DNA of 64,000 bases from Candidatus Spyradenecus sp. (GTDB lineage: Bacteria; Verrucomicrobiota; Kiritimatiellia; RFP12; DVOR01), in NCBI GenBank assembly GCA_045613865.1, contig JAZLBT010000017.1:19152-83151 (forward strand), read 5' to 3'. Of this stretch, positions 910 to 60,925 are shown in pieces. Each line of letters opens with the position of its first letter. The first letter of the stretch is position 1. A program made the translations under genes and the position numbers. Below the pieces are notes generated by a model. The model was given only the letters and a program-made list of their open reading frames with translations. It ran no database searches and was not told the origin of the DNA.

Positions 910-2838
910 ATGATTGAGTGGGAAAAACGATTAAATCCAGAGCAGTTAGCAGCAGTGACTGCACCGGAGGGTCCGGTGTTGGTTTTGGCTGCTGCAGGTA
1001 CAGGCAAGACGCGGACGTTAACGCATCGTGTGGCATGGTTGACTGAGCAAGGGGAGGATCCGTCTCGGATTCTTCTATTGACGTTTACAAATCGTGCTGC
1101 GAGGGAGATGTTGGAGCGTGCTGAGGCATTGGTGGGTTCGCGTGCTGGTACGTTGTGGTCGGGAACGTTTCACCATGTGTGTCATCGTATCTTGCGACGT
1201 CATGCGCGTGAGGTGGGATTTACAACGTTATTCACGATTCTTGATCGAGATGATTCGTTGAGTCTGTTGAAGAAGGTGATGAAGTCGTTTGAGTTAGCAA
1301 AGGATTTCCCGAAGAAGGAGGTCGTGCAATCGCTCATTAGTCAGCAGGCGCAGGATTTGGAGCTGTCGATGGCGGATGTGCTCGATGGCTCGGATATTCC
1401 AATTGAGTTTCATGAGACGTTAACAAAGATTGCCGCGCAGTATGAGGTGCTTAAGCAGGATCAGAATGCGTTTGACTTTGACGATTTGTTGGTTTATACA
1501 TTGCGTTTGTTAAAGGAGAATCCGCAGGTTCTCGCGCATTACGCTGAACGTTTTCGTCATGTGTTGGTCGATGAGTTTCAGGATACAAATCGCATTCAAG
1601 CGCAGTTGGTGGATTTGCTTGCCTCGCATCATCGCAATGTGATGGCAGTGGGGGATGATTTTCAATGTATTTATTCGTGGCGCGGGGCAGATTTCCGTAA
1701 TATTATGGATTTCCCCGAACGTTGGCCAGGTTGTCAGATTATTAAGTTGGAGCGGAATTATCGCTCTGTGCCGCCGGTATTGACATTGGCTAATGCCTCG
1801 ATTGCAGGGAACAAGGATCAGTTCCAAAAGACGTTGTTGCCGACACGTGAGGGGGGGCGATTGCCGTTGATTGCGTATTTGCATGATGCACAAGAGCAAG
1901 CGCAGTTGGTGTTGCGTCAGATTCAACGGGCGTTTAATGCGGGATATCGTCCACAGGATATTGCCGTTTTATATCGGTCGCATTTCCATGTGATGGAGTT
2001 GGAAATGGCATTGCGGCGTCAGCAGGTGAATTATGAGTTGACGTCGGGGCAGGGAATTTTTGAGAGTGTGCATGCAAAAGATGTGGTGGCCTATTTGAAG
2101 ATGGCATCAGGGCATGCAGATGCGTTAGCCTTTACGCGAATGATGGGACTCTTGCCAAGTGTTGGAGAGAAGACGGCAGAACGTCTTTGGAGTAAGATGG
2201 GGGGTGCATTTGATGCCTCACGCGAACAAGATCGTTTGAAGTTGACGTCGTTGATGCCTGCGAAGGCGAAGGCTGATTGGCAGATTGTTGATGGATTGCT
2301 CGCGCAGTATTGGGAAGAGGATTTGACGCATCACGGAAATCGCGCGGTCATGCAGTTCTTGGACGGATGGTATGAGAAGTATTTGATGCGAAGCTTCGAT
2401 AATGCGGAGGATCGCGCGAATGATATTTCCGCAATTGCAGCAATGATTGATCGTGGTCGTGATGTTGCGGAGTTTCTCGCCGAGGTGGCGTTGATGACGA
2501 ATTTAGAGGCCGAAGAGGTTTCTCAACGTGCGGATATGCCTCCTGGGGTTCGGTTGTCTACGATTCATCAGGCGAAGGGCTTGGAGTGGCCAGTTGTTAT
2601 TTTGCTGTGGTGTAATGAGGATATGTTCCCTTCGGCAAAGGCCTTGCAAGAAGGAAATGAAGCGGAGGAACGGCGACTTTTCTATGTGGCATTGACACGT
2701 GCAAAAGATGAATTGCTCTTGTGTGTCCCTTCATCTCGTCGATTGCCAGGAAATGGGAATACGCTCTATTTGCGACCTTCGCGCTTTGTGAAGGCTTTGC
2801 CAGCAGAAGGATACACGAAACGTTATGGGGTGTATTGA
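910..2838 (+). CDS. ATP-dependent DNA helicase, UvrD/Rep/PcrA family
   Basis: 642 aa. Walker A AAGTGKTRT, DEFQD motif, UvrD-type C-terminal block (VRLSTIHQAKGLEW). Extended -10 TGTGTATAAT about 20 nt upstream and an AT-rich leader with no clear ribosome-binding site. Confidence 0.85.
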   Translation: MIEWEKRLNPEQLAAVTAPEGPVLVLAAAGTGKTRTLTHRVAWLTEQGEDPSRILLLTFTNRAAREMLERAEALVGSRAGTLWSGTFHHVCHRILRRHAREVGFTTLFTILDRDDSLSLLKKVMKSFELAKDFPKKEVVQSLISQQAQDLELSMADVLDGSDIPIEFHETLTKIAAQYEVLKQDQNAFDFDDLLVYTLRLLKENPQVLAHYAERFRHVLVDEFQDTNRIQAQLVDLLASHHRNVMAVGDDFQCIYSWRGADFRNIMDFPERWPGCQIIKLERNYRSVPPVLTLANASIAGNKDQFQKTLLPTREGGRLPLIAYLHDAQEQAQLVLRQIQRAFNAGYRPQDIAVLYRSHFHVMELEMALRRQQVNYELTSGQGIFESVHAKDVVAYLKMASGHADALAFTRMMGLLPSVGEKTAERLWSKMGGAFDASREQDRLKLTSLMPAKAKADWQIVDGLLAQYWEEDLTHHGNRAVMQFLDGWYEKYLMRSFDNAEDRANDISAIAAMIDRGRDVAEFLAEVALMTNLEAEEVSQRADMPPGVRLSTIHQAKGLEWPVVILLWCNEDMFPSAKALQEGNEAEERRLFYVALTRAKDELLLCVPSSRRLPGNGNTLYLRPSRFVKALPAEGYTKRYGVY

Positions 2839-2839
2839 G

Positions 2840-3472
2840 ATGGTAAAGGTTGTATTTCTTTGTTGTTTGCTTTTGTTGATGCGTGTGACGGGATTGGCTA
2901 CGTCGATGACGTTGGTTGCCATGCAAACAGATGTTTCATTGTCGCTTTCGATTGAACAAGAGGTGGAGGAGAGTATTGCTCGCGGTCAGCGTTGGCTAAA
3001 AGGACAAGGCGTAACGTCAATTGCGGGGATAGATGATGACGTTTATAAGACTTTAATCTTTTCGTCTCAGTCGATGGTAGAAGTATCTCCTGCGGCATGG
3101 GCAAGTTTTACATCTGCCGTTGAAAAGGTTGATGCACGTGCAAAGTCACGATACGATGCAATCACTAAGGCTTTGAATGAAGGTACGTTGGAAACATTGT
3201 CATGTATGCCATCTGAACTTTATGCCTATGTGCAATGTGATTTATTTCCGAAGTGTGTGCACGCAAAGTTCCCGAAGGAAGCGCCAATTCAGTGGCGTAC
3301 ACAACTTGCCTTGTATCTCGTGACATCCCAACAAATGGATGCAAAAGGGGGCTTTTGGCAAGCAGGCTCGCGAGAGGAGTCATTTTGGGCAGTATTGCTT
3401 TTACGATTATTGATTTATCGCCAGCCTGCATTGTTGCCGGTGGTTGAAGGTGTTAATGGGTTGGAGGAATGA
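2840..3472 (+). CDS. Hypothetical secreted protein
   Basis: N-terminal signal-like segment MVKVVFLCCLLLLMRVTGLATS. No recognisable domain. First gene of a tightly packed five-gene block. Confidence 0.5.
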   Translation: MVKVVFLCCLLLLMRVTGLATSMTLVAMQTDVSLSLSIEQEVEESIARGQRWLKGQGVTSIAGIDDDVYKTLIFSSQSMVEVSPAAWASFTSAVEKVDARAKSRYDAITKALNEGTLETLSCMPSELYAYVQCDLFPKCVHAKFPKEAPIQWRTQLALYLVTSQQMDAKGGFWQAGSREESFWAVLLLRLLIYRQPALLPVVEGVNGLEE

Positions 3473-3473
3473 G

Positions 3474-4535
3474 ATGCGTTTACGCTCATTAGATCTTTTA
3501 CGAGGAAGTGTGATGTTGTTATTGACGGTGGTACAGCCGTTGATTATGGCATTTGCTGCGTGGATTCCGCTTGGTGATTGGACGGTGGCGTTGTCACATG
3601 TTGAGTGGGAAGGACTTCGTCTGTGGGATTTGGTGATGCCGTGTTTCATTTTCATGTGCGGAGCATCCGTGCCGTATGCGTTGCCGAAGTATTTGGAAGC
3701 GGGACGCCCAACGCAAACGTTTTGGAGGCATCTCTTAAAGCGTGTGGCCATTTTGTGGGTGTGGGGGCTTATTATTCAAGGGAATGCGCTTTACCTTGAT
3801 TGGGAATATCTTTATTTTTACACGAATACCTTGCAAGCAATTGCCGCAGGTTATGTGATTACGGTGTTGGTCTATTTAGCACCGCGTATGTGGATTCGCT
3901 TTGTTGCACCTTTTGCATGTATGGCGCTTTATGGAAGTTTGCTTGCGTGGTGGGGTGATTATTCAATGACGGGTAATTTGGCCTATCACGTAGAAACGAT
4001 GGTTTTCCCTGGTGGACATGGCGATCCGAAGTATACATGGGTGCTTACAACATTGATGTTTGGTGCGATGACACTCTTAGGGGCAAACGTAGGCGAGATT
4101 CTTAAGGGGGCGGGTGCGTGGTTGCGTAAGGCAATCTTTCTTGGGCTTGGAGCGGTTGCATTATTGCTCGGCGGCTGGATCCTTGCTGCGTGGGTTCCGG
4201 TAATTAAGCCGATTTATACCGTGAGCTTTACATTGATGGCGATGGGATGGTCGCTGCTCGCTTTGACATTGCTTTATGCTGTCGTTGATGGTTTACAGAT
4301 CTGTCTTGGCTTTGGATGGGTGATAATGTTTGGTCAGTATGCGCTCGTGGCTTATGTTGCGGGATGTTGTTTGATGCCGACATTTCAAACCTTTGGTAGT
4401 GGATTGACGTGCTCGGTGGCTCATCATTTCGGTCAACAAGCGGGAACGTTTGCAATGCAGCTTGTTGCAATCCTTCTACTTATAGGTTTTGTTTTTTGCT
4501 GGAAGACATTGAAAGAACGTGGAGGTCGCTCATGA
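3474..4535 (+). CDS. Membrane acyltransferase of the DUF1624 / heparan-alpha-glucosaminide N-acetyltransferase (HGSNAT)-like family
   Basis: GGAGGAATGAGATG ribosome-binding site and start. N-terminal RLRSLDLLRG motif typical of DUF1624, and about 10 predicted transmembrane segments. Its start abuts the upstream stop. Confidence 0.6.
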   Translation: MRLRSLDLLRGSVMLLLTVVQPLIMAFAAWIPLGDWTVALSHVEWEGLRLWDLVMPCFIFMCGASVPYALPKYLEAGRPTQTFWRHLLKRVAILWVWGLIIQGNALYLDWEYLYFYTNTLQAIAAGYVITVLVYLAPRMWIRFVAPFACMALYGSLLAWWGDYSMTGNLAYHVETMVFPGGHGDPKYTWVLTTLMFGAMTLLGANVGEILKGAGAWLRKAIFLGLGAVALLLGGWILAAWVPVIKPIYTVSFTLMAMGWSLLALTLLYAVVDGLQICLGFGWVIMFGQYALVAYVAGCCLMPTFQTFGSGLTCSVAHHFGQQAGTFAMQLVAILLLIGFVFCWKTLKERGGRS

Positions 4536-5704
4536 CACGTTTAAAGTGGTTGATTTTGGGTGGCATTTTTCTAGTCCTTCTTGGATTGGCTATTGGGGCA
4601 TGGTTGTGGTTTCGATCAACGCCAGAATTAATAATGCCGAAAGCCCCTGCACAACAAGTGCCGGCGCCGATAGTGTCGCAGTTTTTTGATGCGTCGCTTT
4701 CGGTGAAAGAGCGAGAGACAATGTTGCTCGCGATGCTTGAGGAGATGAATAATCCATTGCGTGCAGAACGTTGGATGGCGCGCGGTGATGCTTTGGCACG
4801 AAAAGTGCCTCAAGCAGCATTGGAGTGGTGGCTTGTGACATCTGCAAATACGTTTTGGCCAGCGGCAGATTTTGCTGTTGGCTGTGCGGCGCTTGAAGGT
4901 TATGGAATGCCGTATAATCGTGTTTTGGGAGAGGGAATGCTTTCGCGTGCAGTAACGTTTGGTTATGCACCTGCTTATTTGCGGCGAGAGTTATTACGTC
5001 GGGCAGCTGATTTGCCTCAGCTTTTTACTCCGAAGTCGGGAGAGGATTTCTTCTATCAAGGGCTTTATTTTGCTGCTGGCTATTATCGCGAGGTGTCGAT
5101 TGAGCAAGCAAAGGAAGCATGGACGCGCGCAATGGAATTGGAGCATGTAGAGGGGACGCTCTTCTTGGCATTCCAGTATTGTCGCGAGGGAGATATTGAA
5201 CAAGCAAAGGTATTGCTTGAGAAGATTGTAAAGGTTTCTGCTCCTGCAAAGTTGTGGCTTGCACGTTTATTGTTGGAGAATGAACAGGATGAAATGGCGC
5301 GGAAGCGTGCATTTGACTTACTGTGTTCGGTGTGCGAGGATGCGGAGTGTGGGGCAGACGCCGCTCTTTTACTTGGATGGTTGACGTTGAAATACGAGAT
5401 TGAGGGGGCGGAGACGCCTGCGGTCTATTTTAAAGCTTCGACAAAAGATGGTCACCCAATTGGGTATTTTATGAATGGCGTGTGTTGTTTTTATGGATTG
5501 GGTGGAGCTGTAAAGTCGACCTCCCTCGAGACGATTGCGAGTTTGCGATTAGCGGCGAATTTAAGAGTTGTAAATGCGCTATTTATGCTCGCTCATATTT
5601 ATGCCGAGGGTGAGGGTGTTGAACGTGATGATTGGACATCATTTAGCTATCAGCAACAGGTGAAAAAGATATTGGATGGTTTGCAACCGGAGGAGGGACA
5701 ATGA
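4532..5704 (+). CDS. Membrane-anchored Sel1/TPR-like repeat protein
   Basis: GGAGG ribosome-binding site and ATG overlapping the upstream stop. N-terminal transmembrane segment (WLILGGIFLVLLGLAIGAWLWF) followed by degenerate Sel1-like repeats (EQAKEAW..., GDIEQAKVLLEKI). Confidence 0.5.
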   Translation: MTRLKWLILGGIFLVLLGLAIGAWLWFRSTPELIMPKAPAQQVPAPIVSQFFDASLSVKERETMLLAMLEEMNNPLRAERWMARGDALARKVPQAALEWWLVTSANTFWPAADFAVGCAALEGYGMPYNRVLGEGMLSRAVTFGYAPAYLRRELLRRAADLPQLFTPKSGEDFFYQGLYFAAGYYREVSIEQAKEAWTRAMELEHVEGTLFLAFQYCREGDIEQAKVLLEKIVKVSAPAKLWLARLLLENEQDEMARKRAFDLLCSVCEDAECGADAALLLGWLTLKYEIEGAETPAVYFKASTKDGHPIGYFMNGVCCFYGLGGAVKSTSLETIASLRLAANLRVVNALFMLAHIYAEGEGVERDDWTSFSYQQQVKKILDGLQPEEGQ

Positions 5705-11441: not shown

Positions 11442-12419
11442 TTAACGTTTGAAGAGGATTTCTGTAATGGCAATGATAGCTTCATCCCAATGAGCAAGAT
11501 CATCACAATGAATCGACTCAATCGGGGAGTGGTTACCACGCGTTGCAAGAAGAAGTGGAATGACGGGCATCATGCGTCCTAATACGGGAAAAGCGCGTGC
11601 ATCTGTGCCAGAGTAGTTATATACTTCTGTCTGCAAAGGAACCTCAAGCGCACAACATTGGTCGCGCTCCTCGGGAGAAAGAAGAACAGAATTGTCAGAC
11701 AGTGTAATCACGGGACCTTTGCCCATTTCAACATTTTGCTTCTCATTCTCATAAGTGATATCGAGAACGACTACGGCATCAGCTTTAACATCACGTGCAA
11801 GAACGTTCGCTCCAAAGCCATTCACCTCTTCCATTGCTGTTGCCGCGAGAATGACGTTGAAGTTCGGAAGTGCATGCTTGCATTGATTATACCACTCTGC
11901 GATTAATGCGCAACCGATGCGATTATCAAGGAAGGGGGAGTGGATGAGATTATCTTCTTCCTTCCAAGAAGTCTCCCAACAAAGGCGATCACCCTTTTGA
12001 ATGCGTGCGCAAGGCTCATCTAAACGGGCCTTAATAGGTTTTTGGTGGCGCCATTGAGAGGCCTCTTCGTCGTTATCGAAAATGAGCGTCGCATTAACAC
12101 GCGTTCCATCGCTACACTTGAGAACGAGCCGTTGACCATTTTCTGGATGTACGCCTCCTAATGCGAGAACTTCAATGTCAAGCGGAGAGGCGATTGAAGC
12201 AACAATAAACCCCGGGCTATCTGCGTGAGCAACGAGAAGAAGCGTATCCGCCTTACGTCGTTCTGCAGGTTCTGCAAGAATGGCATATTTACCGAGCCGT
12301 TGGATATCGAGCCCTTGGGCGCGCCAACACTCTTCAAGCATGTTGAAAACAGCACCTTCATCCCCTGGAGTGGAATGGAGTGCGCAAAACTTTTTGAGCG
12401 TAGGAATTAAATTAATCAT
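11442..12419 (-). CDS. M42-family metallopeptidase (FrvX/endoglucanase-like aminopeptidase)
   Basis: 325 aa with overall M42 architecture and conserved His/Asp/Glu-rich blocks. Four-nt overlap with the downstream gene. Confidence 0.55.
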   Translation of the reverse strand: MINLIPTLKKFCALHSTPGDEGAVFNMLEECWRAQGLDIQRLGKYAILAEPAERRKADTLLLVAHADSPGFIVASIASPLDIEVLALGGVHPENGQRLVLKCSDGTRVNATLIFDNDEEASQWRHQKPIKARLDEPCARIQKGDRLCWETSWKEEDNLIHSPFLDNRIGCALIAEWYNQCKHALPNFNVILAATAMEEVNGFGANVLARDVKADAVVVLDITYENEKQNVEMGKGPVITLSDNSVLLSPEERDQCCALEVPLQTEVYNYSGTDARAFPVLGRMMPVIPLLLATRGNHSPIESIHCDDLAHWDEAIIAITEILFKR

Positions 12420-13001: not shown

Positions 13002-14072
13002 TTAATTGGTGGCAAGAACAACCCAAACGGTGTAGATGAGCCATAAGATGAGGAAGAGAATACCGAGGGGTCGACCGAGTGTAATATGGGGAGAAGGCTT
13101 TTGTTTACGAATACGCGCCCAAACAATGAGTGCTGGCACCCACAAAAGGAGCGTGGAGATAATCATCGAGAAGAGATCTCGATAACGTAAACCATTGGGA
13201 AGATTTTCACCCGCAACAGGCTGAATCATTAATGCAAGCCCTGCGACAATACAAAGGTTGAAACAGTTTGAACCGATAACGTTACCGACGGCAATATCAT
13301 CCTGGCCCTTGCGTGTTGCAACAACCGATGCCATAAGCTCAGGCAGTGACGTTCCCAAAGCAATGATGGTCACGCCAACAATGAGCTGTGTCGCAGACTG
13401 CGAAATGCCCACTGCTTGTGCAACGGTTTCTGCAATCCACTTAGCAGAATAAACGAGCATCTGAGAAGAGAGAATTAAGAGGGTTAAACCACCAGCAATC
13501 GAAGCAAGCATTTTGCTAACAGACATCTGTTTTGAACAACACTCGCAGTCCTCTTCTTCACTGACTGTTGCAGTTTCACGTTGTTTCCATGCAATGCAGA
13601 TTTGGTAGGAGAGAAAGATGATAAAGATTATAAAGAGCGAGGCACCTTCAAGGCGAGAGAGCCCGTTATGAGCGCCAACACAAAATGCGCTTAAAAGGCC
13701 CATCACTCCAAGAAGAAACGGAATGTCACGTTTCAACACGATGCGATGCAACGCAATTGGTGCAATGAGCATACAAACGCCAAGAATGAGGAGAACATTG
13801 GTGATGTTACTGCCATAAGCATTACCGAGGGCAAGCACGGGGGCCCCTTGCGCTGCTGCAAGAACAGAAACAATCATTTCCGGTGCGCTCGTTCCGAAGC
13901 CAACAATCACAAAGCCAATAATCAATGGAGGAATGGCAAGACGACATGCAAGCGCAACCGCGCCCTCGACGAAAATCTCGGCACTCTTGGTCAACAAAAA
14001 CATGCCTATAATCAAACCCGCAATTGCGAGTGGCCATAACGACCATGCAGGTAAACAACTTGTAAGTAACAT
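13002..14072 (-). CDS. Sodium/calcium exchanger (CaCA family, YrbG-like)
   Basis: 356 aa. Two alpha-repeat signatures, GTSAPEM and GNVIGSN / GNAYGSNITN. Confidence 0.85.
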   Translation of the reverse strand: MLLTSCLPAWSLWPLAIAGLIIGMFLLTKSAEIFVEGAVALACRLAIPPLIIGFVIVGFGTSAPEMIVSVLAAAQGAPVLALGNAYGSNITNVLLILGVCMLIAPIALHRIVLKRDIPFLLGVMGLLSAFCVGAHNGLSRLEGASLFIIFIIFLSYQICIAWKQRETATVSEEEDCECCSKQMSVSKMLASIAGGLTLLILSSQMLVYSAKWIAETVAQAVGISQSATQLIVGVTIIALGTSLPELMASVVATRKGQDDIAVGNVIGSNCFNLCIVAGLALMIQPVAGENLPNGLRYRDLFSMIISTLLLWVPALIVWARIRKQKPSPHITLGRPLGILFLILWLIYTVWVVLATN

Positions 14073-18302: not shown

Positions 18303-19220
18303 TTAACCAATCTTGATATCAGCCTTTTCGCGCAAATCAGCAACATAATTCGAAACCGCTTGTCCACGCGTCGAGTGGAAGAGAAGATTCTGCACCTGAT
18401 CGTGGATTTCTTCCAACGTGGGGGTGTAACCCTGCTTCTCATCTGTCTTAATGATGATGTGATAACCAAACTGCGTTTCAAGAATTTCCGAAACAACATT
18501 CTTCTCGCAAGAGAAAGCAACATCTTCAAAGGGCTTAACCATCATCCCCTTGCCGAACCAACCCAACGAACCACCGTTGGACTTACCACTCGGGCAATCA
18601 GAATGCGCTGTAGCTTCAGCATCAAACGTTGAAGCACCAGAAACAATGCGTTCGCGAATTTCAGCCAACTTTGCCTTCGCCGCTTCCTTACCTTCAGCCG
18701 TGTCATTATTAGGCTTAATGAGAATATGCTGAGCAAGCACCTGATCTTCCGTCTTATAATCATCCTTATGGAGATTGTAGAACTCAGTAATCTCCTCTTC
18801 CGTCGGAGCTGCAACAGAAGCGCAAATCTGGTCAATCAACTTATTAATCTGTGCGCCTTGACGAAGTTCTTCCTTGAAAGATTCAACCGTCATATTTTGA
18901 GCTTCAATCGCCTTGATAAGCTTATCCTTATCGCCACCGAACTGATTGATATAAGTTTCAAACTGAGCATCCAACTCCTCGCCAGAGATTGCAATCTGAA
19001 GACGCTTCGTTTCGTCAATCAATAACTTCGTGCCAATGGCCTGTTCTAAAGCGCGCTGCTGCAAAGTTTCAAGCTGCATGTGAAGTTGAGCTTCAGGCAT
19101 ACCCTGCTGCTGATAAAAATGAATCAAACGCTGCAATTCAAAATCAACCGCCTGCTGAGGAATAGGATCACCATTAACGGTCGCAATAATTTTTTCTTCT
19201 GCCATAACGATACCTTTCAT
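18303..19220 (-). CDS. Peptidyl-prolyl cis-trans isomerase, parvulin (PpiC) type, SurA/PrsA-like
   Basis: Start placed at MKGIVMAEEK within the longer ORF. The C-terminal parvulin domain contains HILIK and GGSLGWFGKGMMVKPFEDVAF. Confidence 0.8.
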   Translation of the reverse strand: MKGIVMAEEKIIATVNGDPIPQQAVDFELQRLIHFYQQQGMPEAQLHMQLETLQQRALEQAIGTKLLIDETKRLQIAISGEELDAQFETYINQFGGDKDKLIKAIEAQNMTVESFKEELRQGAQINKLIDQICASVAAPTEEEITEFYNLHKDDYKTEDQVLAQHILIKPNNDTAEGKEAAKAKLAEIRERIVSGASTFDAEATAHSDCPSGKSNGGSLGWFGKGMMVKPFEDVAFSCEKNVVSEILETQFGYHIIIKTDEKQGYTPTLEEIHDQVQNLLFHSTRGQAVSNYVADLREKADIKIG

Positions 19221-19369
19221 ATAACATATAATAAAATAAATGCGCGAAATTATACCATATAAATAATATAAAGACAAGCGCGAATTAAACACCCCAAAAG
19301 GAGTGGACATTGTAAGTCTCCATGAGGGGAATATACCCTTTGATGAAAGGGACAAATTGTACCCTTTTT

Positions 19370-19452
19370 CAAACCCTATTGATTTGCTCGTCAAACCCTA
19401 TTGATTTGACCTTCAAAACCTATTGATTTCAAACGCAAAACAATAGGGTTTG
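19370..19452. repeat. Array of 4 copies of a 17-nt motif with 22-bp period (3 x CAAACCCTATTGATTTG, then 1 inverted CAAAACAATAGGGTTTG)
   Basis: Read directly. Lies in the 625-bp divergent intergenic region between the PPIase (-) and S8 protease (+) genes. The same motif recurs at 56.7 kb in the opposite orientation. Confidence 0.85.
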
Positions 19453-19518
19453 AAAAACACCCCAAATTCCTCCCATTTCCCAAAGAATTTCGAAGGATTT
19501 GATTTCACTTTTTCAATC

Positions 19519-20020: not shown

Positions 20021-22387
20021 ATGTTCGGACGACGAGGGTTATTTTTCTGTGGTTTAGTGGTGGCAGCGATGGGTGTTGTCATCGGGTGGGGTGTTGTTTT
20101 TTCTTCGTCGCGTCGAGTAGTTTATTGTGCGCCAAAGGTGGTGGAGGGGAATGTATATGATCGTTTGGCGGAGTCGGACGAGGGGGTAAAGGTAGCATTG
20201 GCAGGGTGCCGACCGTTTGTGGAGGAGGTGTCAAAGGTGGCAGTGTTGTCGCGGAATCGTTTGGTGGCGCGGTGTGTGGTGGCAGCGCCAGAGGAGGCGG
20301 TTGAGGTCGCGGTTTTTTGTAAGGATTTAGAGGCTGTTGCGCAGGTGTTGTCGGGGTTGCCGATGTTGGTGGCTTCGGCGCAGGAGCCGTTGGTATTAAA
20401 GGGGCGTGTGGAATGTGGGATGTTGTTGCCGTTTTTGCAGCAGCCACCAAAGGGAGTGTTGGGGATTGAGGAGCAGGGAACGTTGCGTCTTTATAATGCG
20501 GTGGCCTCGGGGCCGCGTTTTGTTGGAACGGCATCACATGTGTTGCCGTCGATGCAGGGGTTGGGGAGTTTTGGATTGGATGGCTCAGGCGAGATTGTCG
20601 CGGTGATTGATACGGGGATTTGTTCGGGGGTATTTGAACAAGATTTTCATGTTGATTTGAAGGCGGGGCTTTATGGGATGGTGGCGGAGCCTTCGTCGAG
20701 TAGGGATGTGCCGGTGGATTTGGATGGGCATGGCACGCATGTTTGTGGGTCGATTATTTCGCGAGGATCGCAGTATGCGCAGACGCGTGGGGGTGCACAG
20801 GGCGCACGGTTGTATATGCAGGGGATTGGCGCGGGTTATGCTGGTGGGATAGATTTGCTCTCGGAGGTGAATGTTCATTTTGAGCGAAGTGCATTGATGG
20901 GGGCAAAGATTGTTTCAAATTCATGGGGGAATAATGTTCCAGGGAAGATGTATAGCTCTGGAGGCTATACAGTATATACTTCGCGATTGGATCAGTTTGT
21001 ATGGAATAATCCTGAGATGCTTGTGTTGTTTGCCACGGGAAATGATGGTAAGGATAATAATGGGGATGGTTTAGCGGATGCAAAGACGGTCATCAGTGCT
21101 GAGAATTATGCAAAGAATGTGTTAATTGTAGGGGCACAAGAGTCTTTTAGCACAACGTCAACGGCGACGTATGGAATGGGTTTTTCTTCGCATCAACAGA
21201 TTTATTCGGATTTGATGGCGTATCCGTATGATGGGGTACATGATGGGATGGCGGCGTTTTCTTCGCAAGGCCCACTTGTGGATGGACGTGTGTCACCGAT
21301 GATTGTTGCACCAGGGACGGAGATTGCCTCAACGTATTATGATTATGATACTTCGTATCTCGGAACGGCATTAAGCTCTGGAACATCGATGTCAACGCCT
21401 TTGGTGGCTGCGGCCGCGACGGTGTTGCGTCAGTATTTGCGAGAATATCATGCGCTTTCACGGCCAACGGCGGCATTGTTGCGTGCGGGGTTGGTGCTTT
21501 GTTCGGATTCGCTTTATCCAGGACAGTATGTGGGCGAGATACCGCAGGTGTCGCCAAACAGTGTTGAAGGGTGGGGTGCGCTTCACCTTGGGAAGCATTT
21601 GGCGGGGATTGATCGTGATGGAACGACGCAGATGCCAATGACTTTTGGGTTTAAGGATCGAATTGTGTTGGAGACGGCGGGCGCATCAACGTCGTTTACT
21701 TTCACAACGGATGAGGTTGGCGAAGTGCGAGTGGTGCTTTCGTGGATTGATTATCCGGATGTGGATGCTGCTTCTCAACCGCTCGTGAATGATTATAATC
21801 TCTCGGTTACGGATCCAACAGGGGTGGAGTATACGCTTGAGGATCATTTGAATCCAATTGAGCGTATTATTATAAAGGAAGGTGTTGTTGGCACGTATAC
21901 GGTGAAGGTAAGTGCGAGTAAGATTGGTCAGACGGGAACGGGAAATCTTGCTGCGCTTGCATGGTCGGCAAAGACGGCAGAGGCACCGATTGTGTTTCAG
22001 GCGCCTGTTGTTGCAACGAATACGGCGACGCTTGAGGTCCGGTTGCCGGAGGGGGCCGTGGCATATAAGGATTATCCTGTTTGGCCAGCGCCAGGGCAAC
22101 ATCTTTTTGGGGTTGGGAAGAAGATTGCCCCGATGGCAGGCCCGAAGCTTGGTTATTCGGCGTACACGAAGCATATTGTGACGCCTTTAGCGGGGTGGAT
22201 TTTATTTGATGCAAAAGGGCGACCGGTGCGGCAGCACTTTTCACAACGAGAGATGGTCACGCTTGCCTCTGGTGGTACGTTGGAAGGCGCGATTCTTCCT
22301 CCTGAAAAACCGCTTCTTCTTGAGCAAGGGTGGTACACGTTGCAGTGGTATACAACCTTTCCTGGGTATGGATTACAATTGGAATAA
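20021..22387 (+). CDS. Secreted subtilisin-like serine peptidase (S8 family) with long N-terminal region
   Basis: 788 aa. Asp/His/Ser triad motifs VIDTGI, HGTHVCGS, GTSMSTP. N-terminal signal/transmembrane segment, then about 150 aa that are rich in Val, Ala and Gly before the catalytic domain. Confidence 0.85.
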   Translation: MFGRRGLFFCGLVVAAMGVVIGWGVVFSSSRRVVYCAPKVVEGNVYDRLAESDEGVKVALAGCRPFVEEVSKVAVLSRNRLVARCVVAAPEEAVEVAVFCKDLEAVAQVLSGLPMLVASAQEPLVLKGRVECGMLLPFLQQPPKGVLGIEEQGTLRLYNAVASGPRFVGTASHVLPSMQGLGSFGLDGSGEIVAVIDTGICSGVFEQDFHVDLKAGLYGMVAEPSSSRDVPVDLDGHGTHVCGSIISRGSQYAQTRGGAQGARLYMQGIGAGYAGGIDLLSEVNVHFERSALMGAKIVSNSWGNNVPGKMYSSGGYTVYTSRLDQFVWNNPEMLVLFATGNDGKDNNGDGLADAKTVISAENYAKNVLIVGAQESFSTTSTATYGMGFSSHQQIYSDLMAYPYDGVHDGMAAFSSQGPLVDGRVSPMIVAPGTEIASTYYDYDTSYLGTALSSGTSMSTPLVAAAATVLRQYLREYHALSRPTAALLRAGLVLCSDSLYPGQYVGEIPQVSPNSVEGWGALHLGKHLAGIDRDGTTQMPMTFGFKDRIVLETAGASTSFTFTTDEVGEVRVVLSWIDYPDVDAASQPLVNDYNLSVTDPTGVEYTLEDHLNPIERIIIKEGVVGTYTVKVSASKIGQTGTGNLAALAWSAKTAEAPIVFQAPVVATNTATLEVRLPEGAVAYKDYPVWPAPGQHLFGVGKKIAPMAGPKLGYSAYTKHIVTPLAGWILFDAKGRPVRQHFSQREMVTLASGGTLEGAILPPEKPLLLEQGWYTLQWYTTFPGYGLQLE

Positions 22388-35900: not shown

Positions 35901-36071
35901 GTAAAGGAATGCGAATAAGATATCATACCGCAAAATAAAATGCAAGTACTTTTTTAACCCAACCAATAAAATTCTCATTTTGAGCATAAATTATCGTTTA
36001 ATAATCCATTGCTTCCCTCTGCTAAGCACCCCATTAAAAACACCTAAAATCAAACGTAGGTTAAATGAAAT

Positions 36072-36203
36072 TCATTTAGGTACGGTTTGATTGTCATTTA
36101 GGTGCTGTTTGAACGTCATTTAGGTGCTGTTTGATTCTCGTTTAGGTGCTGTTTGAACGTCATTTAGGTGCTGTTTGATTCTCGTTTAGATGCTGTTTGA
36201 TAA
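36072..36203. repeat. 6 contiguous tandem copies of a 22-bp unit TC(A/G)TTTAGGTGCTGTTTGA(ACG/TTC)
   Basis: Read directly. Variants alternate between GAACG and GATTC ends. No spacers, so it is not a CRISPR array. An inverted half-site (CACCTAAA) sits just upstream at about 36047. Confidence 0.9.
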
Positions 36204-36315
36204 TTAATGTGCGTAGGTTTGAAAGTCGGTGGGTATGAACATTAGAATTAAGTGTATAGCAGTGGCATTTGGGTGGAATGTTTTAGAGGTGGTGGGATTT
36301 TGTGTGTGAAATGCT

Positions 36316-36344
36316 TTGACTTTAATTTTATCTTATGGTAATAT
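36316..36344 (+). promoter_or_regulatory. Sigma70-type promoter upstream of the oxidoreductase and giant-protein genes
   Basis: TTGACT, 17-nt spacer, TAATAT. Confidence 0.5.
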
Positions 36345-55157: not shown

Positions 55158-56495
55158 TTATTGGCGTCCTTTCTTTCGCGATTGCATCCATTCTAAGCGT
55201 TTTGCAATCGTCTCCTCATAACCCGTCATCTTAGGTTTATAGTAACGCTTGGGAATAGTTAAATAACTCTGTTCAACGGCAGTATCCTGATAGTCATGCG
55301 GATACTTGTAAGCTGGCGCAGAGGCTTTCTCCTCGGCTTGAACATGAACATTCTTCAAATGCTCTGGCACTGGCTGTACACGTCCTGATCGAACATCCCC
55401 CATCGCCTCATTAATTGCAAGATAGGCGGCATTCGATTTCGGTGCGGAAGCAAGATAGGTCGTCGCCTGAGCGAGCGCAATTCGCGCTTCTGGCATGCCA
55501 ATAAATTCAACTGACTGCATCGCTGCAACCGCAATGGTCAACCCACGCGGATCCGCATTTCCAATATCCTCGCTTGCAGAAATGATTAAACGACGTGCAA
55601 TAAAACGAGGATCTTCGCCACCCTCAAGCATTTTTGCCAACCAATAAATCGCTGCATCGGGATCTGATCCGCGAATAGATTTAATAAATGCCGAGATTGT
55701 ATCGTAATGTTGATCCTCATCCTTGTCATAAGAAATAATGCGCCGTTGAATACACTCCGACATTGTGTTAGCATCAATGAGAATCTCTCCATCTACATTT
55801 GGCGGTGTTGAGCGAACAGCAATTTCAAGGGCTGTCAATGCACGGCGACCATCACCATCGCAAATCGTCGCAAGAAAATCCTTCGCATCGTCTGTCATGA
55901 TTGGGTGCGAAGCTCCAAGACCACGCACCTCATCTGTCAGAGCGCGATCAATGAGCGTACGAATGGCAGAAGCATCAAGCGCATGCAATTCAAAAACAAG
56001 CGAACGCGAAACAAGCGGCGTATTAATGAAAATCCCAGGGTGATGAGTTGTTGCACCAATTAAGGTTACCGTTCCATCTTCAACATATGGGAGAAGAACA
56101 TCTTGCTGCGATTTATTAAAACGATGAATCTCATCAACAAAGAGCACCGTTCCCATACGACCACGATAGGCCTTTGCCTGTTCGCAAATGGCACGTAACT
56201 GCGCGACATTACTCATCACGCCACTCGTACGTTCAAACCGTCGATGCGTTGTCTTTGCGATAACCTCAGCAAGCGTTGTCTTGCCAGTGCCAGGAGGTCC
56301 ATAAAAAATCAAATTTGTAAAACGATCGCTCTCAATCACACGACGCAAGAGACGACCAGGGGCGAGAATATGATCCTGCCCCACAATCTCCTCAAGAGAC
56401 TGCGGACGCATACGTGCAGGTAATGGCCCAATGGAGCGAGAATCCACAAGTGGCTCCATAAAAGGCTCTTCATCTCTTTCAAACAAATCTTCCAT
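55158..56495 (-). CDS. rarA: Replication-associated recombination protein A (AAA+ ATPase, MgsA/RarA)
   Basis: 445 aa. GPPGTGKTTLA Walker A, DEIHRFNK and a C-terminal MgsA domain. Confidence 0.9.
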   Translation of the reverse strand: MEDLFERDEEPFMEPLVDSRSIGPLPARMRPQSLEEIVGQDHILAPGRLLRRVIESDRFTNLIFYGPPGTGKTTLAEVIAKTTHRRFERTSGVMSNVAQLRAICEQAKAYRGRMGTVLFVDEIHRFNKSQQDVLLPYVEDGTVTLIGATTHHPGIFINTPLVSRSLVFELHALDASAIRTLIDRALTDEVRGLGASHPIMTDDAKDFLATICDGDGRRALTALEIAVRSTPPNVDGEILIDANTMSECIQRRIISYDKDEDQHYDTISAFIKSIRGSDPDAAIYWLAKMLEGGEDPRFIARRLIISASEDIGNADPRGLTIAVAAMQSVEFIGMPEARIALAQATTYLASAPKSNAAYLAINEAMGDVRSGRVQPVPEHLKNVHVQAEEKASAPAYKYPHDYQDTAVEQSYLTIPKRYYKPKMTGYEETIAKRLEWMQSRKKGRQ

Positions 56496-56667
56496 ACCCG
56501 ATAGTATACCACAAAATCACTCCATAATACATATTATATTATTCCAATGTGTATGATTAAACAGTGTATAGTAACGTTATGGGGGCAAAAAGAGGAAAAT
56601 GAATGATGTTTTACCTTCTGCATCATACAAAAAATGTCAGCAAATTTGTGAGGAAAAGGTCTCACAT

Positions 56668-56757
56668 TCAAATCAATAGGTTTTGATCGTCAAATCAATA
56701 GGGTTTTGATCGTCAAATCAATAGGGTTTGGACTTCAAAACAATAGGGTTTACTTTT
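56668..56757. repeat. Array of 4 tandem copies (22-23 bp period) of TCAAATCAATAGGGTTT, same family as the 19.4 kb array but in the opposite orientation
   Basis: Read directly. One copy lacks a G and the last is TCAAAACAATAGGGTTT. Solitary copies occur at about 56925 (CAATAGGGTTTGAAAAG) and about 57664 (TAATAGGGTGAAAAAC). Confidence 0.85.
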
Positions 56758-57256
56758 TCAACTGATTGCACCATGGGCGAGCGAGAACCTCATTTGCCTA
56801 ACATATTGCCGTGTCAATCATTCCGTACCATCTGTTTTCGTGTCGGAAATTGGCAGTAGAAAATTGCGTGGATTGTACTATTCCTGCCACTCTAAAATTA
56901 GTACAAAATATGACAAATTGATGCAATAGGGTTTGAAAAGACTATAAAATGGCAATAAAAGTGGTGGTATTTATGGTCACCTTTTTATAAAACCGATGGG
57001 TTGGCACAACGCGTGTTTTTCGAGATTTGTATTGTTTTTGAGGTGAGATTTGATGGAGTCATTTTTATGCTATGAGAGCGATTTGGGTGAATTGTTTTTG
57101 CGATCAAATGAATTCATTTTCTACTGCAAGGTTCTGTGTTTTTAATATTAAAGATAAGGTGTAACGAAAAGAGTGATGTTCATCACGAATAGTTGCATAA
57201 GTGGGAGAATGCGGCGTGGGTTTCTTGAATAAAAACTAGAAAAATAAAAAAAGTGC

Positions 57257-57285
57257 TTGCATGGTATAGTGGGATTTGTTATACT
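57257..57285 (+). promoter_or_regulatory. Sigma70-type promoter of tRNA-Ser
   Basis: TTGCAT, 17-nt spacer, TATACT. About 20 nt upstream of the tRNA 5' end. Confidence 0.6.
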
Positions 57286-57306
57286 ACACGCCGATTTTTG
57301 GTTTTA

Positions 57307-57397
57307 GGAGAGGTGGCCGAGTGGTCGAAGGCGCAAGACTGGAAATCTTGTGTACTCCTCGTGGGTACCGTGGGTTCAAATCCCACCCTCTCCGCCA
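57307..57397 (+). tRNA. tRNA-Ser (anticodon GGA)
   Basis: GGAGAGGTGGCCGAGTGGTCGAAGGCGCAAGACTGGAAATCTTG...GGGTTCAAATCCCACCCTCTCCGCCA. Long variable arm, class II tRNA, anticodon loop CTGGAAA, encoded CCA. Confidence 0.9.
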
Positions 57398-57410
57398 GTT
57401 CATGAAAGCA

Positions 57411-57437
57411 GATCGCGTTGAGACGCGGTCTTTTTTT
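57411..57437 (+). terminator. Rho-independent terminator after tRNA-Ser
   Basis: GATCGCGT / ACGCGGTC stem with one G:U pair and loop TGAG, followed by TTTTTTT. Confidence 0.7.
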
Positions 57438-57695
57438 GTCTCATCGTCTCAATAGAAATTTTAACGCAGGTCTATGTAAATTTCCGTGGGGGAGTTTCGT
57501 TTTCCCTTGTTTCATTGTCTTTGTCGGTCTTGTTAGTGTGTTGCATTGTTAGGATTAACTTTTTGATTTTAAAAGGGTTGTGGTATGGTTCAAAAAATGA
57601 CGAAAAGCGCCTCTCGGTGAAAATCGTGATGAAGACTAGCAATTCTTCCTCTTCTTTGGTAAATTAATAGGGTGAAAAACGGAGGAACTTTTGTT

Positions 57696-59121: not shown

Positions 59122-59733
59122 ATGATGAAAGTTTTATTTACATGTTTGATGGTGCTCTCGCTTGTGGCAAATCTCTCTGCTGCAGAAGATGATGGCATGG
59201 CAGCTGCTCGTGAAGCGTTGATGAATCCGAATGCAAAGCCCGCAACGGTGGTCGAAACGCCAATGCGTGATACGGAAATCACAGCAAAGCATATGGAGTA
59301 TAACTCCAAAGAAGGCGTGGCAATTTTAACGGAAGACGTGGTCATTGATGATGTTCGTTTCCATTTGACATGCGATAAGCTTTTCCTTTTTATGAATAAG
59401 GATAAGGCTGAAGAGGCGCCCAAAGAAGAAGCCGCCAAGAAGGAAGATGATATGCAGCAGTCGTTTTCCCGCATTGTGTGTTTGGGCAATGTAAATGTGA
59501 AGAGCGAAAATCGCACCGCAACATGCGAAAAGGCTGTATATACAAAGGCCGATGCTTGCTTGATTCTCGTTGGCAAGGTTGTGATGACCGACGTTGATGC
59601 AGAGGGCAAGAAGAATCACATCATGGGTGATAAGGTGACGATTTGGACTGAAGATGGTCGCGTGGAAATTTATCCGAAACCGAAATTACAGTTGTCGCCT
59701 GGCGCATCGAAAGAAATTAAGGGACTCATGTAA
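59122..59733 (+). CDS. lptA: LptA-like periplasmic LPS transport protein (OstA_N domain)
   Basis: 203 aa with signal peptide. Located immediately upstream of lptB with a TAATG overlap. Confidence 0.6.
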   Translation: MMKVLFTCLMVLSLVANLSAAEDDGMAAAREALMNPNAKPATVVETPMRDTEITAKHMEYNSKEGVAILTEDVVIDDVRFHLTCDKLFLFMNKDKAEEAPKEEAAKKEDDMQQSFSRIVCLGNVNVKSENRTATCEKAVYTKADACLILVGKVVMTDVDAEGKKNHIMGDKVTIWTEDGRVEIYPKPKLQLSPGASKEIKGLM

Positions 59734-60482
59734 TGGACGACGAGACAACACAACCGATCGTAACGGGCGTCCAAGCCACAGGTTTGAAGAAAATCTATGG
59801 CGATCGTACGGTCGTGAATAATATCTCTATCAAAGCAAACTGCGGTGAATGTGTCGGTCTTTTAGGACCGAATGGCGCCGGTAAAACCACAACGTTCTAT
59901 ATGGTTGTTGGTTTGGTTCGTCCAGATGGTGGACAGGTGTGCTTTAATGGCCAAGATGTGACGCACATGCCAGTTTACAAGCGTGCACGTATTGGCTTGG
60001 GCTATCTCGCACAAGAAGCGAGCATCTTCCGCCGTTTGAGTGTGCAGGATAATATTCTTGCGATTTTGGAAACCATGCATCCGACACGTGCGGAAAAGGC
60101 TGCACGCTTGGAAGAGTTGCTCACCTCGTTGGGCCTTGCAAAGGTGGCAAAGCAACCTGCTTATACGCTCTCGGGTGGTGAACGCCGCAAGCTTGAAATT
60201 GCACGCGCATTGGTGCGTCGTCCGTCGATTTTGATGCTTGACGAACCCTTTGCAGGTGTTGACCCTCTCGCCGTAGATGATATCCAAAACATTGTTCGCG
60301 GTTTGAAGGCGCAGGGGCTTGGGGTGATTATCACCGACCACAACGTGCGTGAAACGTTGGATATCGTGGACCGCGCATATATCGTTTTTGAAGGTTCCGT
60401 ACTTTGCGAAGGAACCAGCATGGAGTTGATTAACAACCCCGATGCACGTCGATCTTATCTTGGTGAAAACTTCCGAATGTAG
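59733..60482 (+). CDS. lptB: LPS export ABC transporter ATP-binding protein
   Basis: 249 aa. Walker A GPNGAGKTT, signature LSGGERRKLEIA, Walker B ILMLDEPFAGVD. Confidence 0.9.
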   Translation: MDDETTQPIVTGVQATGLKKIYGDRTVVNNISIKANCGECVGLLGPNGAGKTTTFYMVVGLVRPDGGQVCFNGQDVTHMPVYKRARIGLGYLAQEASIFRRLSVQDNILAILETMHPTRAEKAARLEELLTSLGLAKVAKQPAYTLSGGERRKLEIARALVRRPSILMLDEPFAGVDPLAVDDIQNIVRGLKAQGLGVIITDHNVRETLDIVDRAYIVFEGSVLCEGTSMELINNPDARRSYLGENFRM

Positions 60483-60535
60483 GAAAGTCGTAGCCAACAA
60501 CATACAACCAACCACACACGAAAGGTAGGTACAAC

Positions 60536-60865
60536 ATGACAGTAGAAGTGAATGCACGTCATAAAAACATTTCTGAAGGTTTCCGTGAATATGCTAAGCA
60601 ACGCGGAGAAAAGCTCGGTGAAGCATTTCCGATGGTTGAATCCGTCCGCATTGTGATGGATTTCCAGAACAAGCTCTGCGCAGCTGAAGTGATTGCTCAG
60701 CGTAAGGATGAAACATTCGTTGGCAATGCTCACACGGATACCTCTATGCGTGCAGCTGTTGATATGGCTGCAGCAAAGGTTGAAACTCAGATTCGCAAAA
60801 AGCGCGCAAAGGCTTATGTTGAAACGGCCCGTAAGGCCGCTCAAGCTGCCGAAGCTGCAAAGTAA
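60536..60865 (+). CDS. hpf: Ribosome hibernation promoting factor (HPF/RaiA, short form)
   Basis: 109 aa. MTVEVNARHKNISEGFREYAKQ... sigma54-modulation-protein fold. Confidence 0.9.
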   Translation: MTVEVNARHKNISEGFREYAKQRGEKLGEAFPMVESVRIVMDFQNKLCAAEVIAQRKDETFVGNAHTDTSMRAAVDMAAAKVETQIRKKRAKAYVETARKAAQAAEAAK

Positions 60866-60925
60866 AACCTTGTCGCTACGCCTCCTGTTGTGGGGGCGTA
60901 GCATCTGCCCCCGAGGCACGATCGT

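Follow-up and report, generated by a model that had tools for sequence, protein, structure and literature searches.

Helically phased repeat arrays, candidate protein-binding platforms, in intergenic regions of a group of uncultured Kiritimatiellae

Several described systems place short recognition sites at intervals of two helical turns. The iterons of theta plasmids (RepA, pi and TrfA types, including those of RK2, R6K, pPS10 and Acinetobacter Rep_3 replicons) are units of 17-22 bp present in 3-7 direct copies, with a two-turn period of 22-23 bp, an AT-rich context and an additional inverted copy in the rep operators. In the phage lambda operators (OR1-3 and OL1-3) and in the enhancers of sigma-54 activators such as NorR and NtrC, three or four 17-bp sites, often palindromic, lie ca. 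22-24 bp apart; two such sets may be separated by kilobases, and three bound dimers could form a hexamer. Iteron clusters located off the origin act by titration or handcuffing, as in P1 incA and Vibrio Chr2 (PMC6090056), and phased Fis sites are found upstream of tRNA and rRNA promoters in Escherichia coli, such as tyrT and rrn P1 (PMC8099737).

The array described here, A2, shares much of this anatomy and is located in a housekeeping stretch of a bacterial chromosome. The window, that is, the whole 64-kb stretch of DNA analysed, carries rpsG, pcrA/uvrD, mutS, a sulfatase gene, tex, genes for a SurA-like PPIase and a subtilase, trmD, rplS and clpB, as well as a PBP gene, xerC/D, hemB, fabH, crcB, gdh, rsmB, rarA, the kdsA-lptC-lptA-lptB-hpf-hprK cluster and ptsI, and its cumulative GC skew rises steadily throughout. 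The best matches of the RarA and PPIase proteins are in MAGs named Kiritimatiellae, a PVC lineage with few cultured representatives for which, to our knowledge, no transcription-factor sites have been characterised; we likewise know of no description of such arrays in this phylum, and literature searches for arrays in Kiritimatiellae or upstream of bacterial tRNA genes returned nothing relevant. Scans of the major ORFs of the 64 kb against Pfam and NCBIfam found no Rep/TrfA/RepA initiator, transposase or transcription-factor domain.

A2 (positions 56668-56757, + strand) consists of four head-to-tail TCAAATCAATAGGGTTT(GA) units with spacers of 3-6 nt. The units, at 56668-56684, 56690-56706, 56713-56729 and 56735-56751, follow each other at 22, 23 and 22 bp and carry, in this order, 1, 0, 0 and 1 mismatches to TCAAATCAATAGGGTTT, so that the four-copy array with a 22-23-bp period described in the earlier note is indeed present, with at most one mismatch per unit over 56668-56751. 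It is placed in a non-coding, AT-rich island of 811 bp (56496-57306; 35% GC vs 47% for the whole window) that extends, as had also been noted, from the start of rarA (55158-56495, - strand) to a tRNA-Ser gene (57307-57397, + strand) with its terminator at 57410-57431. No ORF longer than 45 aa is wholly contained in the island, and a small protein encoded there was rejected on this ground; an Rfam search of the island gave no match of note. Neither PLSDB nor phage records rendered a blastn match to the island, and no DnaA box (with up to one mismatch) is present in or near the islands, the window holding 7 one-mismatch DnaA sites vs 14 expected.

The motif of A2, hereafter motif A, is shared with a second array 37 kb away, A1 (19365-19457, - strand), and in the opposite orientation, as previously reported: three units lie on the - strand (19371-19387, 19393-19409 and 19415-19431) and an inverted fourth one on the + strand (19435-19451). 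Matches to motif A with up to three mismatches amount to eight in the window vs 0.32 expected, a number reached in none of 100 shuffles. The outer two units of A1 form a 23-nt inverted repeat that is 96% complementary. A1 and A2, with 3+1 and 4 units respectively, are thus inverted repeats of each other 37 kb apart; the 17-mer is kept in both while the spacers are unrelated, and a comparison of the two arrays found no conserved element body beyond the units. The sequence CTTTTTC abuts the outer ends of both arrays (with a 1-nt offset at the right), as a target-site duplication might, but GAAAAA is also found as a 3' extension of the motif in three copies. The two arrays are mirror images, with an AGGTTTT unit at the same end of each and the AAAACAATAGGG variant present in both, and this mirroring with variants in common points to a probable descent from a common array. 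A1 lies between the SurA-like PPIase gene and the subtilase gene.

A third array, B (36072-36201, + strand), which the earlier note did not include, is made of six 22-bp units, TCATTTAGGTGCTGTTTGA plus 3 nt, with a higher-order period of 44 bp. Its motif differs from motif A, to which it has 11 of 19 positions in common in the frame TCA..T...T...GTTTGA, and a position-weight matrix of either motif does not pick up the other. Array B is located between a tRNA-Ala gene and a GFO/IDH/MocA oxidoreductase gene, midway between their promoter-like elements. A self-lag scan of the window detected tandem periodicity at four places only, with lags of 22 at 19.4 kb, 22 at 36.1 kb, 23 at 56.7 kb and 33 at 0.7 kb. 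A perfect 33-bp duplication is found at 699-764.

Motif and spacer have diverged to very different extents in these arrays. An in-register alignment renders a conserved motif-A unit of 19 nt, TCAAATCAATAGGGTTTGA, followed by 3-4 variable bases. In the eight units of motif A, mismatches affect 7 of 136 motif positions vs 19 of 40 spacer positions (Fisher 2e-9), that is, 5% vs 48%, a roughly tenfold difference in favour of the motif; for motif B the figures are 5 of 114 vs 8 of 18 (Fisher 2e-5). Plain slippage or recent duplication would keep the spacers equally, and therefore does not account for spacers that diverge while the motif is kept. Such a pattern is what a recognition site would be expected to leave, with the motif under apparent site-like constraint.

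Beyond the arrays, one solitary copy of motif A stands out. It is TTGATGCAATAGGGTTTGA, at 56918-56936 (+ strand), ca. 170 bp downstream of A2 and in the same orientation, and it scores 14.3 bits in a position-weight scan; its 16-mer CAATAGGGTTTGAAAA is identical to 19441-19456 and is the reverse complement of 19366-19381, the copies at the ends of A1. The copy that had been reported near 56925 is therefore real. Another one, reported in front of kdsA (57659-57677), is not distinguishable from background: it scores 10.2 bits, and the scan of the window rendered 20 sites above 9 bits vs 9.2 in shuffles, nine of the 20 being the array copies and the solitary copy. The kdsA-front site lies within the kdsA leader, downstream of the tRNA-Ser terminator. 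The idea that further weak copies make up a regulon was likewise rejected, the same scan having found only background beyond the arrays and the 56918 copy.

The position of the arrays was compared with that of promoter-like elements, which were read from the sequence as predictions and are partly conserved in relatives. Closest to A2 is a putative extended -10-like element of rarA, TGGTATACT (56503-56511, - strand), 7 nt upstream of the predicted ATG and 157 bp from the edge of the array. The tRNA-Ser gene is preceded by a promoter-like site TTGCAT-17-TATACT with an A-rich upstream stretch (57257-57285, + strand), 506 bp downstream of A2, and the AAAAAGTGCTTGCA...TATACT pattern of this site also precedes a tRNA-Arg gene in the relative L079. 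Near A1, the SurA-like PPIase gene has a candidate site TTGTCT-17-TATAAT (19249-19277, - strand), 88 bp from the edge of the array, which is conserved in a relative with 83% identity. Array B is flanked by TTGCAT-17-TATCTT for tRNA-Ala (35917-35945, - strand; 127 bp from the array) and TTGACT-17-TAATAT for the oxidoreductase gene (36316-36344, + strand; 115 bp). The distance from array to closest promoter-like element is thus 88-157 bp for A1, A2 and B, with overlap in none of them, and the orientation of the arrays with respect to the flanking genes is inconsistent. As for a sigma-54 promoter (-24/-12), inspection by eye only found TGGCAC at 56997 followed by GTGTT where TTGCW would be expected, and no rpoN gene is found between lptB and hpf, where it usually lies.

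The period of the arrays was analysed in a non-redundant clade set of 208 kb, composed of the 64 kb of the source genome and ca. 145 kb of relatives, and in 762 kb of kdsA loci from metagenomes, an outgroup of up to 71% identity, mostly of other lineages, in which tRNA-Ser adjoins kdsA in no case. Exact self-matches of at least 11 nt in the clade numbered 15 at lag 22 and 4 at lag 23, with no more than 4 at any other lag; the same count in the outgroup rendered 1 and 0, respectively. By a sliding-window criterion, at least five arrays were found in the clade vs none in the outgroup (binomial p = 5e-4). For a comparison with tRNA genes, the 600 bp upstream of each tRNA locus were scored by their longest run of exact matches at a lag of 21-24. 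The longest runs at the six clade loci were 20, 11, 13, 17, 16 and 6 nt, whereas those at the ten outgroup loci did not exceed 7 nt, and other lags did not rise above background in either set; upstream repeats at lag 22-23 (runs of 11-20 nt) are thus present at five of the six clade tRNA loci vs none of the ten outgroup loci. One of these, a two-copy repeat in the relative L280, was first spotted by eye and then confirmed by this uniform metric. The lag spectrum and the tRNA metric indicate, therefore, that the arrays are a clade-specific feature, that their phasing is one of two helical turns and that they are often found upstream of tRNA genes. Not all of them are near such genes, exceptions being A1 and locus 1 of the relative L076, for example. 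Long intergenic regions upstream of tRNA genes, together with synteny breakpoints, are what the arrays are most strongly associated with.

Relatives with 73-86% amino acid identity carry arrays of 22-23-bp period with other motifs, several of them palindromic. In L076, GAGATACGGCGTATCTC is repeated three times with a 22-bp period at two loci, each abutting a homologous alternating purine-pyrimidine tract. In L079, GAAACATAGCTATGTTTC is repeated three times with a 23-bp period ca. 340 bp upstream of a tRNA-Arg/Met promoter-like site, and a ca. 22-bp CCCGGGCGGGG series and a similar purine-pyrimidine tract lie beside it. The units of both are full palindromes of 17-18 bp, a signature of dimer binding to duplex DNA. 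In the relative L284, a 22-bp array with a third unit similar to the L076 motif is accompanied by an 11-bp array, and L280 carries GTTTCGGCGATGTTGG twice, at lag 23, upstream of tRNA-Arg, in addition to 9/18-bp CTAGA arrays whose length differs between samples. Motif A itself turned up as an array in none of the collections searched: a search of 185,579 species-representative genomes with the exact 17-mer rendered no array and 75 single matches, vs ca. 70 expected by chance according to our own estimate, and a two-copy motif-A pattern had no match in JGI metagenomes or in IMG/VR. The motifs of array B, L076 and L079 rendered single matches or none in IMG/VR, and no arrays. So far, the family has been found only in one group of uncultured Kiritimatiellae.

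A comparison of orthologous regions, as the earlier note had proposed, showed islands to be absent or rearranged in several relatives and arrays of other motifs to be present at comparable places. Since the rarA loci of four relatives at 82-86% and three at 80-81% identity have short spacers (67-390 bp) and different neighbours, the A2 island is located at a synteny breakpoint. Upstream of the PPIase gene, two contigs of a species with 77% identity begin inside a 22-bp array of TCAAAT-N9-ATTTGA units, and a third contig, encoding an identical PPIase, has coaBC upstream and no island. According to the earlier note, strains lacking the arrays with unchanged neighbours would speak for a neutral repeat; this last strain does lack the island, but its upstream neighbour gene differs too. 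No array was found upstream of the PPIase gene in ten samples of a species with 74% identity, and in one with 83% identity four independent assemblies break ca. 140 bp upstream, at a palindrome. The arrays therefore break short-read assemblies, as indicated by four independent contigs ending at one such site, and their coincidence with synteny breakpoints implies that they may drive rearrangements.

Taken together, A2 is most likely one member of a lineage-specific class of helically phased putative binding-site arrays. We assign a probability of roughly 45% to the possibility that the arrays are bound by a protein and serve as platforms, either for upstream activation or architecture or for titration, a reading to which the constrained motif with free spacers, the fixed period, the palindromes, the three to six copies and the near-promoter location all lend a good fit. 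Each unit of 17-19 bp would be recognised by a sequence-specific DNA-binding protein; motifs A and B would suit a monomer with two heads or a dimer, and the palindromic motifs of the relatives a symmetric dimer. Given a spacing of 22-23 bp, about two helical turns, successive protomers would come to lie on one face of the DNA, and three to six of them may bind cooperatively, forming a short nucleoprotein stretch of ca. 90-130 bp. This stretch would be placed ca. 90-160 bp upstream of the closest predicted sigma-70-type promoter, often upstream of a tRNA promoter, and its role there might be that of an activating or architectural element, comparable to phased Fis sites, or that of a titration site comparable to extra iteron clusters. 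The arrays might grow by tandem duplication, be copied between loci and be quickly replaced between related species; the same module is in fact found at two loci both for motif A, 37 kb apart, and for the L076 module.

Some observations stand against such protein-binding arrays. The 64-kb window encodes no candidate binding protein, some arrays of the clade have periods of 9 or 18 bp, orientation with respect to flanking genes is inconsistent, and the clade sequence surveyed amounts to only ca. 208 kb. Moreover, the fact that motifs differ both within the genome (A vs B) and between species requires either several cognate proteins or fast co-evolution, and the lack of islands or arrays at orthologous positions in several relatives implies that any function is dispensable or redundant. 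What the sequences show directly are the arrays, their phasing, a motif kept better than its spacers, a location close to but outside promoter-like elements and a confinement to this clade; binding by a protein, the identity of that protein and any consequence for transcription are inferred. It can also be speculated that the clade uses a hitherto undescribed system of chromosomal iteron-like arrays, each with its own highly specific motif of 17-19 bp and strictly phased at two turns, upstream of tRNA promoters and other strong ones. Members of a diversified DNA-binding protein family would use them as enhancers or architectural scaffolds, or else the arrays would be decoys that titrate initiators or repressors of mobile elements, a scenario that we regard as unlikely.

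The arrays could, on the other hand, be selfish or neutral interspersed minisatellites with no host function, similar to MIRU, BIME or BOX elements, their units arising by slippage or unequal recombination in dispensable DNA and being copied by recombination or by some unknown mobilising enzyme. This is possible, if on balance somewhat unlikely. The motif is species-specific, its two-copy pattern being missing from JGI metagenomes and IMG/VR and no array turning up in the species-representative genomes. At orthologous sites the islands are lacking or rearranged, and their locations match synteny breakpoints. The copy number of 9/18-bp arrays differs between samples of one species, the 33-bp duplication at 699-764 and the 44-bp period of array B are signs of ongoing tandem duplication, and the 23-nt terminal inverted repeats of A1 are reminiscent of a miniature inverted-repeat element. 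Neutral decay, however, would strike motif and spacer alike, which is at odds with the roughly tenfold better conservation of the motif, and slippage predicts no period fixed at two turns across unrelated motifs; there is, besides, neither a conserved element body between A1 and A2 beyond the units nor a RAYT or other transposase nearby. Even a selfish element, if its own protein recognised it, would amount to a protein-binding array, and to this extent the reading overlaps with the preferred one. Intrinsic DNA curvature as the sole cause seems improbable, since a planar bend would favour 21 over 22-23 bp and the GC-rich palindromic arrays have no A-tracts. A further derivation, quite unlikely in our opinion, is from the iterons of mobile elements, the arrays being remnants of integrated replicons or copies of plasmid or phage iterons or operators that could titrate a replication initiator or a repressor whose gene lies elsewhere, much as a datA-like titration locus, crtS or an incompatibility decoy would. 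The anatomy fits (17-19-bp units, 22-23-bp period, 3-6 copies, AT-rich DNA and the extra inverted copy of A1), numerous specificities with rapid turnover are what an arms race might be expected to produce, and titration of initiators by extra iteron clusters is known (PMC6090056). But the 64 kb have no rep gene, DnaA boxes are missing from the islands and fewer than expected in the window (7 vs 14), blastn against plasmids and phages found nothing, IMG/VR holds no arrays of motifs A, B, L076 or L079, and the arrays are set in a housekeeping chromosome, with a cumulative GC skew that rises steadily over the window.

The earlier note had proposed either a regulon-wide operator, to be checked for a location upstream of envelope or secreted-protein genes, or a small non-autonomous repeat family. 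A dispersed repeat family with a motif under apparent site-like constraint stands, while an envelope-gene regulon is not supported. In favour of one regulator's operator at the SurA-like PPIase, subtilase, kdsA and lpt genes, A1 lies between the PPIase and subtilase genes, A2 is 0.9 kb upstream of kdsA-lptC-lptA-lptB, and the species with 77% identity has a 22-bp array with similar arms (TCAAAT...ATTTGA) upstream of its PPIase gene. We consider it nonetheless very unlikely: the kdsA copy is at chance level, a tRNA-Ser gene and its terminator intervene between A2 and kdsA, the gene closest to A2 is rarA, and the neighbours of the arrays (rarA, tRNA-Ser and the SurA-like PPIase gene) are housekeeping genes. 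In addition, no array overlaps a promoter-like element or keeps a consistent orientation towards flanking genes, neither the 74% species (10 samples) nor one strain of the 77% species has an array upstream of the PPIase gene, and relatives have other motifs at comparable places. Least probable of all, and indeed hardly credible, is a transcribed element, an sRNA with repeated protein-binding or hairpin motifs that would act as a sponge of the CsrB/RsmZ type. A terminator-like hairpin with a T-run (56963-56981, + strand) does follow A2 and the solitary copy, and the unit ends TCAAA and TTTGA could pair as 5-bp stems, but no Rfam model was matched at gathering score (the lowest E-value, 0.45, was that of an unrelated snoRNA model), the folding z-scores are -1.56 for the + strand and +0.86 for the - strand, no promoter match was found upstream on the + strand, the arms show no covariation, and the loop-free full palindromes of the relatives point to recognition of duplex DNA.

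If a protein binds these arrays, they would offer a first entry point into regulation upstream of promoters, or into the architecture of the chromosome, in Kiritimatiellae, whereas if they are neutral minisatellites the finding is an ordinary one. With their strict two-turn phasing across unrelated motifs and their link to tRNA genes, they would resemble the Fis-dependent upstream elements of enterobacteria, except that the sites are sequence-specific and quickly replaced.

With regard to known repeat systems, spacers of 3-6 nt set the arrays apart from CRISPR, in which repeats of 23-50 nt alternate with unique spacers of similar length. The ends of Tn7 (TnsB sites) and Mu (L1-3 and R1-3) also have 22-bp sites, three vs four contiguous ones and an inverted orientation, and A1 and A2 mirror each other in a similar way, with the same variant unit innermost. 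The 37 kb between them, however, are core genome, comprising trmD, rplS, clpB, the PBP gene, XerC/D, hemB, fabH, gdh, rsmB and rarA, with neither a transposase nor any rve, TnsA or TnsC domain encoded there, and A1 and A2 were therefore rejected as the boundaries of a Tn7/Mu-like element. MIRU, REP/BIME and BOX elements are, like these arrays, intergenic, dispersed, species-specific and variable in copy number, and some are bound by host proteins. The arrays differ from them in being strictly direct, with no alternating hairpins, and in their fixed period and free spacers around a constrained motif; MIRU units, moreover, measure 40-100 bp vs 22 bp here. REP/BIME elements are RAYT-associated imperfect palindromes of 20-40 nt that alternate in orientation and typically lie at gene 3' ends; membership of this group is also at variance with direct units placed between divergent genes and upstream of promoters and with a window devoid of Y1 transposase.

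Closer parallels are found among systems of phased sites. Lambda operators overlap promoters and flank the repressor gene, whereas none of the arrays overlaps a promoter-like element, and sigma-54 enhancers need a -24/-12 promoter, of which none was recognised here by inspection by eye only. Plasmid iterons are the closest anatomical match, since they too have three or more direct units of 17-22 bp at two-turn spacing (four at 22-23 bp in A2) in AT-rich DNA, and A1 even has the extra inverted copy. The arrays cannot be ascribed to plasmid iterons proper because they have no rep gene, DnaA box or replicon context, be it plasmid or chromid; their neighbours are housekeeping genes, a single genome contains several unrelated motifs, and there is no sequence similarity to known plasmids. 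The closest functional analogue is the Fis upstream activating sequence, with iteron titration clusters in second place. As with Fis, sites in helical register are found upstream of tRNA promoters (five of six clade loci vs none of ten in the outgroup), but Fis sites share a loose, degenerate consensus throughout the genome, whereas each array has its own specific motif of 17-19 bp, and arrays also occur away from tRNA genes and at distances of up to 500 bp from a promoter. In type, the arrays are phased binding sites of the iteron/UAS kind rather than a new principle.

The two motif-A arrays of the window, A1 (19371-19451) and A2 (56668-56751), are inverted repeats with 37 kb between them, in which the order of the units is mirrored and the outer edges are adjoined alike by CTTTTTC. 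Recombination between A1 and A2, if it happened, would result in inversion of a segment of core genes.

A strain-level rearrangement at an island boundary is found among the related Kiritimatiellae upstream of the gene encoding the SurA-like PPIase, which in the window lies near A1. Locus L291 and loci L292-L294 encode an identical PPIase protein, but their sequences diverge upstream of -97 (ca. 97 bp before the start), a point beyond which coaBC is present in one contig and an AT-rich island in three, an array being visible in two of the latter (L293 and L294). L287-L290 and L293 and L294 are independent short-read assemblies from two related species, and their 5' ends all stop within a few bases of one another, the PPIase gene following at a distance of 140 bp or 400 bp. 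Because these ends fall at a palindrome or within a 22-bp array, it is probable that the arrays break de Bruijn assemblies. As for the gene itself (window 18303-19310), the public record (P0121) assigns it 335 aa versus 297-302 aa in the homologues, and the conserved promoter-like site falls within the extension; the true start is probably 19205.

In the case of rarA (window 56495-56511), a Shine-Dalgarno sequence is absent, and an extended -10-like sequence, TGGTATACT, stops 7 nt ahead of the ATG, so that the mRNA may be leaderless. Within the island between rarA and tRNA-Ser, a terminator-like hairpin followed by a T-run is located on the plus strand at 56963-56990, and no gene was recognised upstream of it.

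A third 22-bp array, B, is composed of six copies of TCATTTAGGTGCTGTTTGA plus 3 nt at 36072-36201, with weaker flanks extending over 36050-36223. Its motif differs from that of the other two arrays and forms a 44-bp higher-order repeat with 94% identity, and the array lies midway between the divergent promoter-like sites of tRNA-Ala and of a GFO/IDH/MocA oxidoreductase gene. At 57035-57077, some 200 bp ahead of the promoter-like site of tRNA-Ser, the window also has two weak sites resembling motif B, which score 9.7 and 9.8 bits and lie 24 bp apart; singly they are at background level, and as a pair they are suggestive only. Another repeat, a perfect tandem duplication of a 33-bp unit, TTGTCGAACGTTGTTGGGCCTTTTAGGATGTTG (699-764), lies after the rpsG terminator and upstream of pcrA/uvrD, its period corresponding to three helical turns; the identity of both copies suggests that it is recent.

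Repeats of several types were found in the relatives. Contig L076 carries at two loci (1826-1990 and 13296-13419) a composite module made of three 22-bp palindromic units and an adjoining GC-rich tract of alternating purine-pyrimidine, Z-DNA-like sequence, homologous between both loci; array and tract follow each other in a different order at each locus, and one copy is followed, ca. 120 bp further downstream, by a promoter-like site of tRNA-Val. In L079 (16150-16630), a 0.86-kb island upstream of tRNA-Arg/Met is dense in repeats, comprising 9-bp CCTTAAGG-type units, a ~22-bp CCCGGGCGGGG series, the array of 23-bp palindromes and also a tract of alternating purine-pyrimidine sequence; the promoter-like site of these tRNA genes, AAAAAGTGCTTGCAC-17-TATACT, is very similar to the one preceding tRNA-Ser in the window. 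CTAGA-rich 9/18-bp arrays downstream of rarA (L280-L283, ~11665-11768; L280, 20595-20731) are VNTR-like, measuring 104 bp versus 66 bp between samples of one species. Immediately upstream of an SNF2-helicase gene, L284 bears an 11-bp array (21275-21320) of four TCAACAGGTTT units, similar to the motif A core (TCAATAGGGTTT).

Regarding other genes of the window, three successive ORFs (215, 363 and 431 aa) after pcrA/uvrD (2825-5704) rendered no Pfam family, the middle one having a weak NagX-like match far under the cut-off. At 59733-60925, lptB is directly followed by hpf and hprK, with neither rpoN nor ptsN in the 53-bp gap, an arrangement that departs from the common lptB-rpoN-hpf order.
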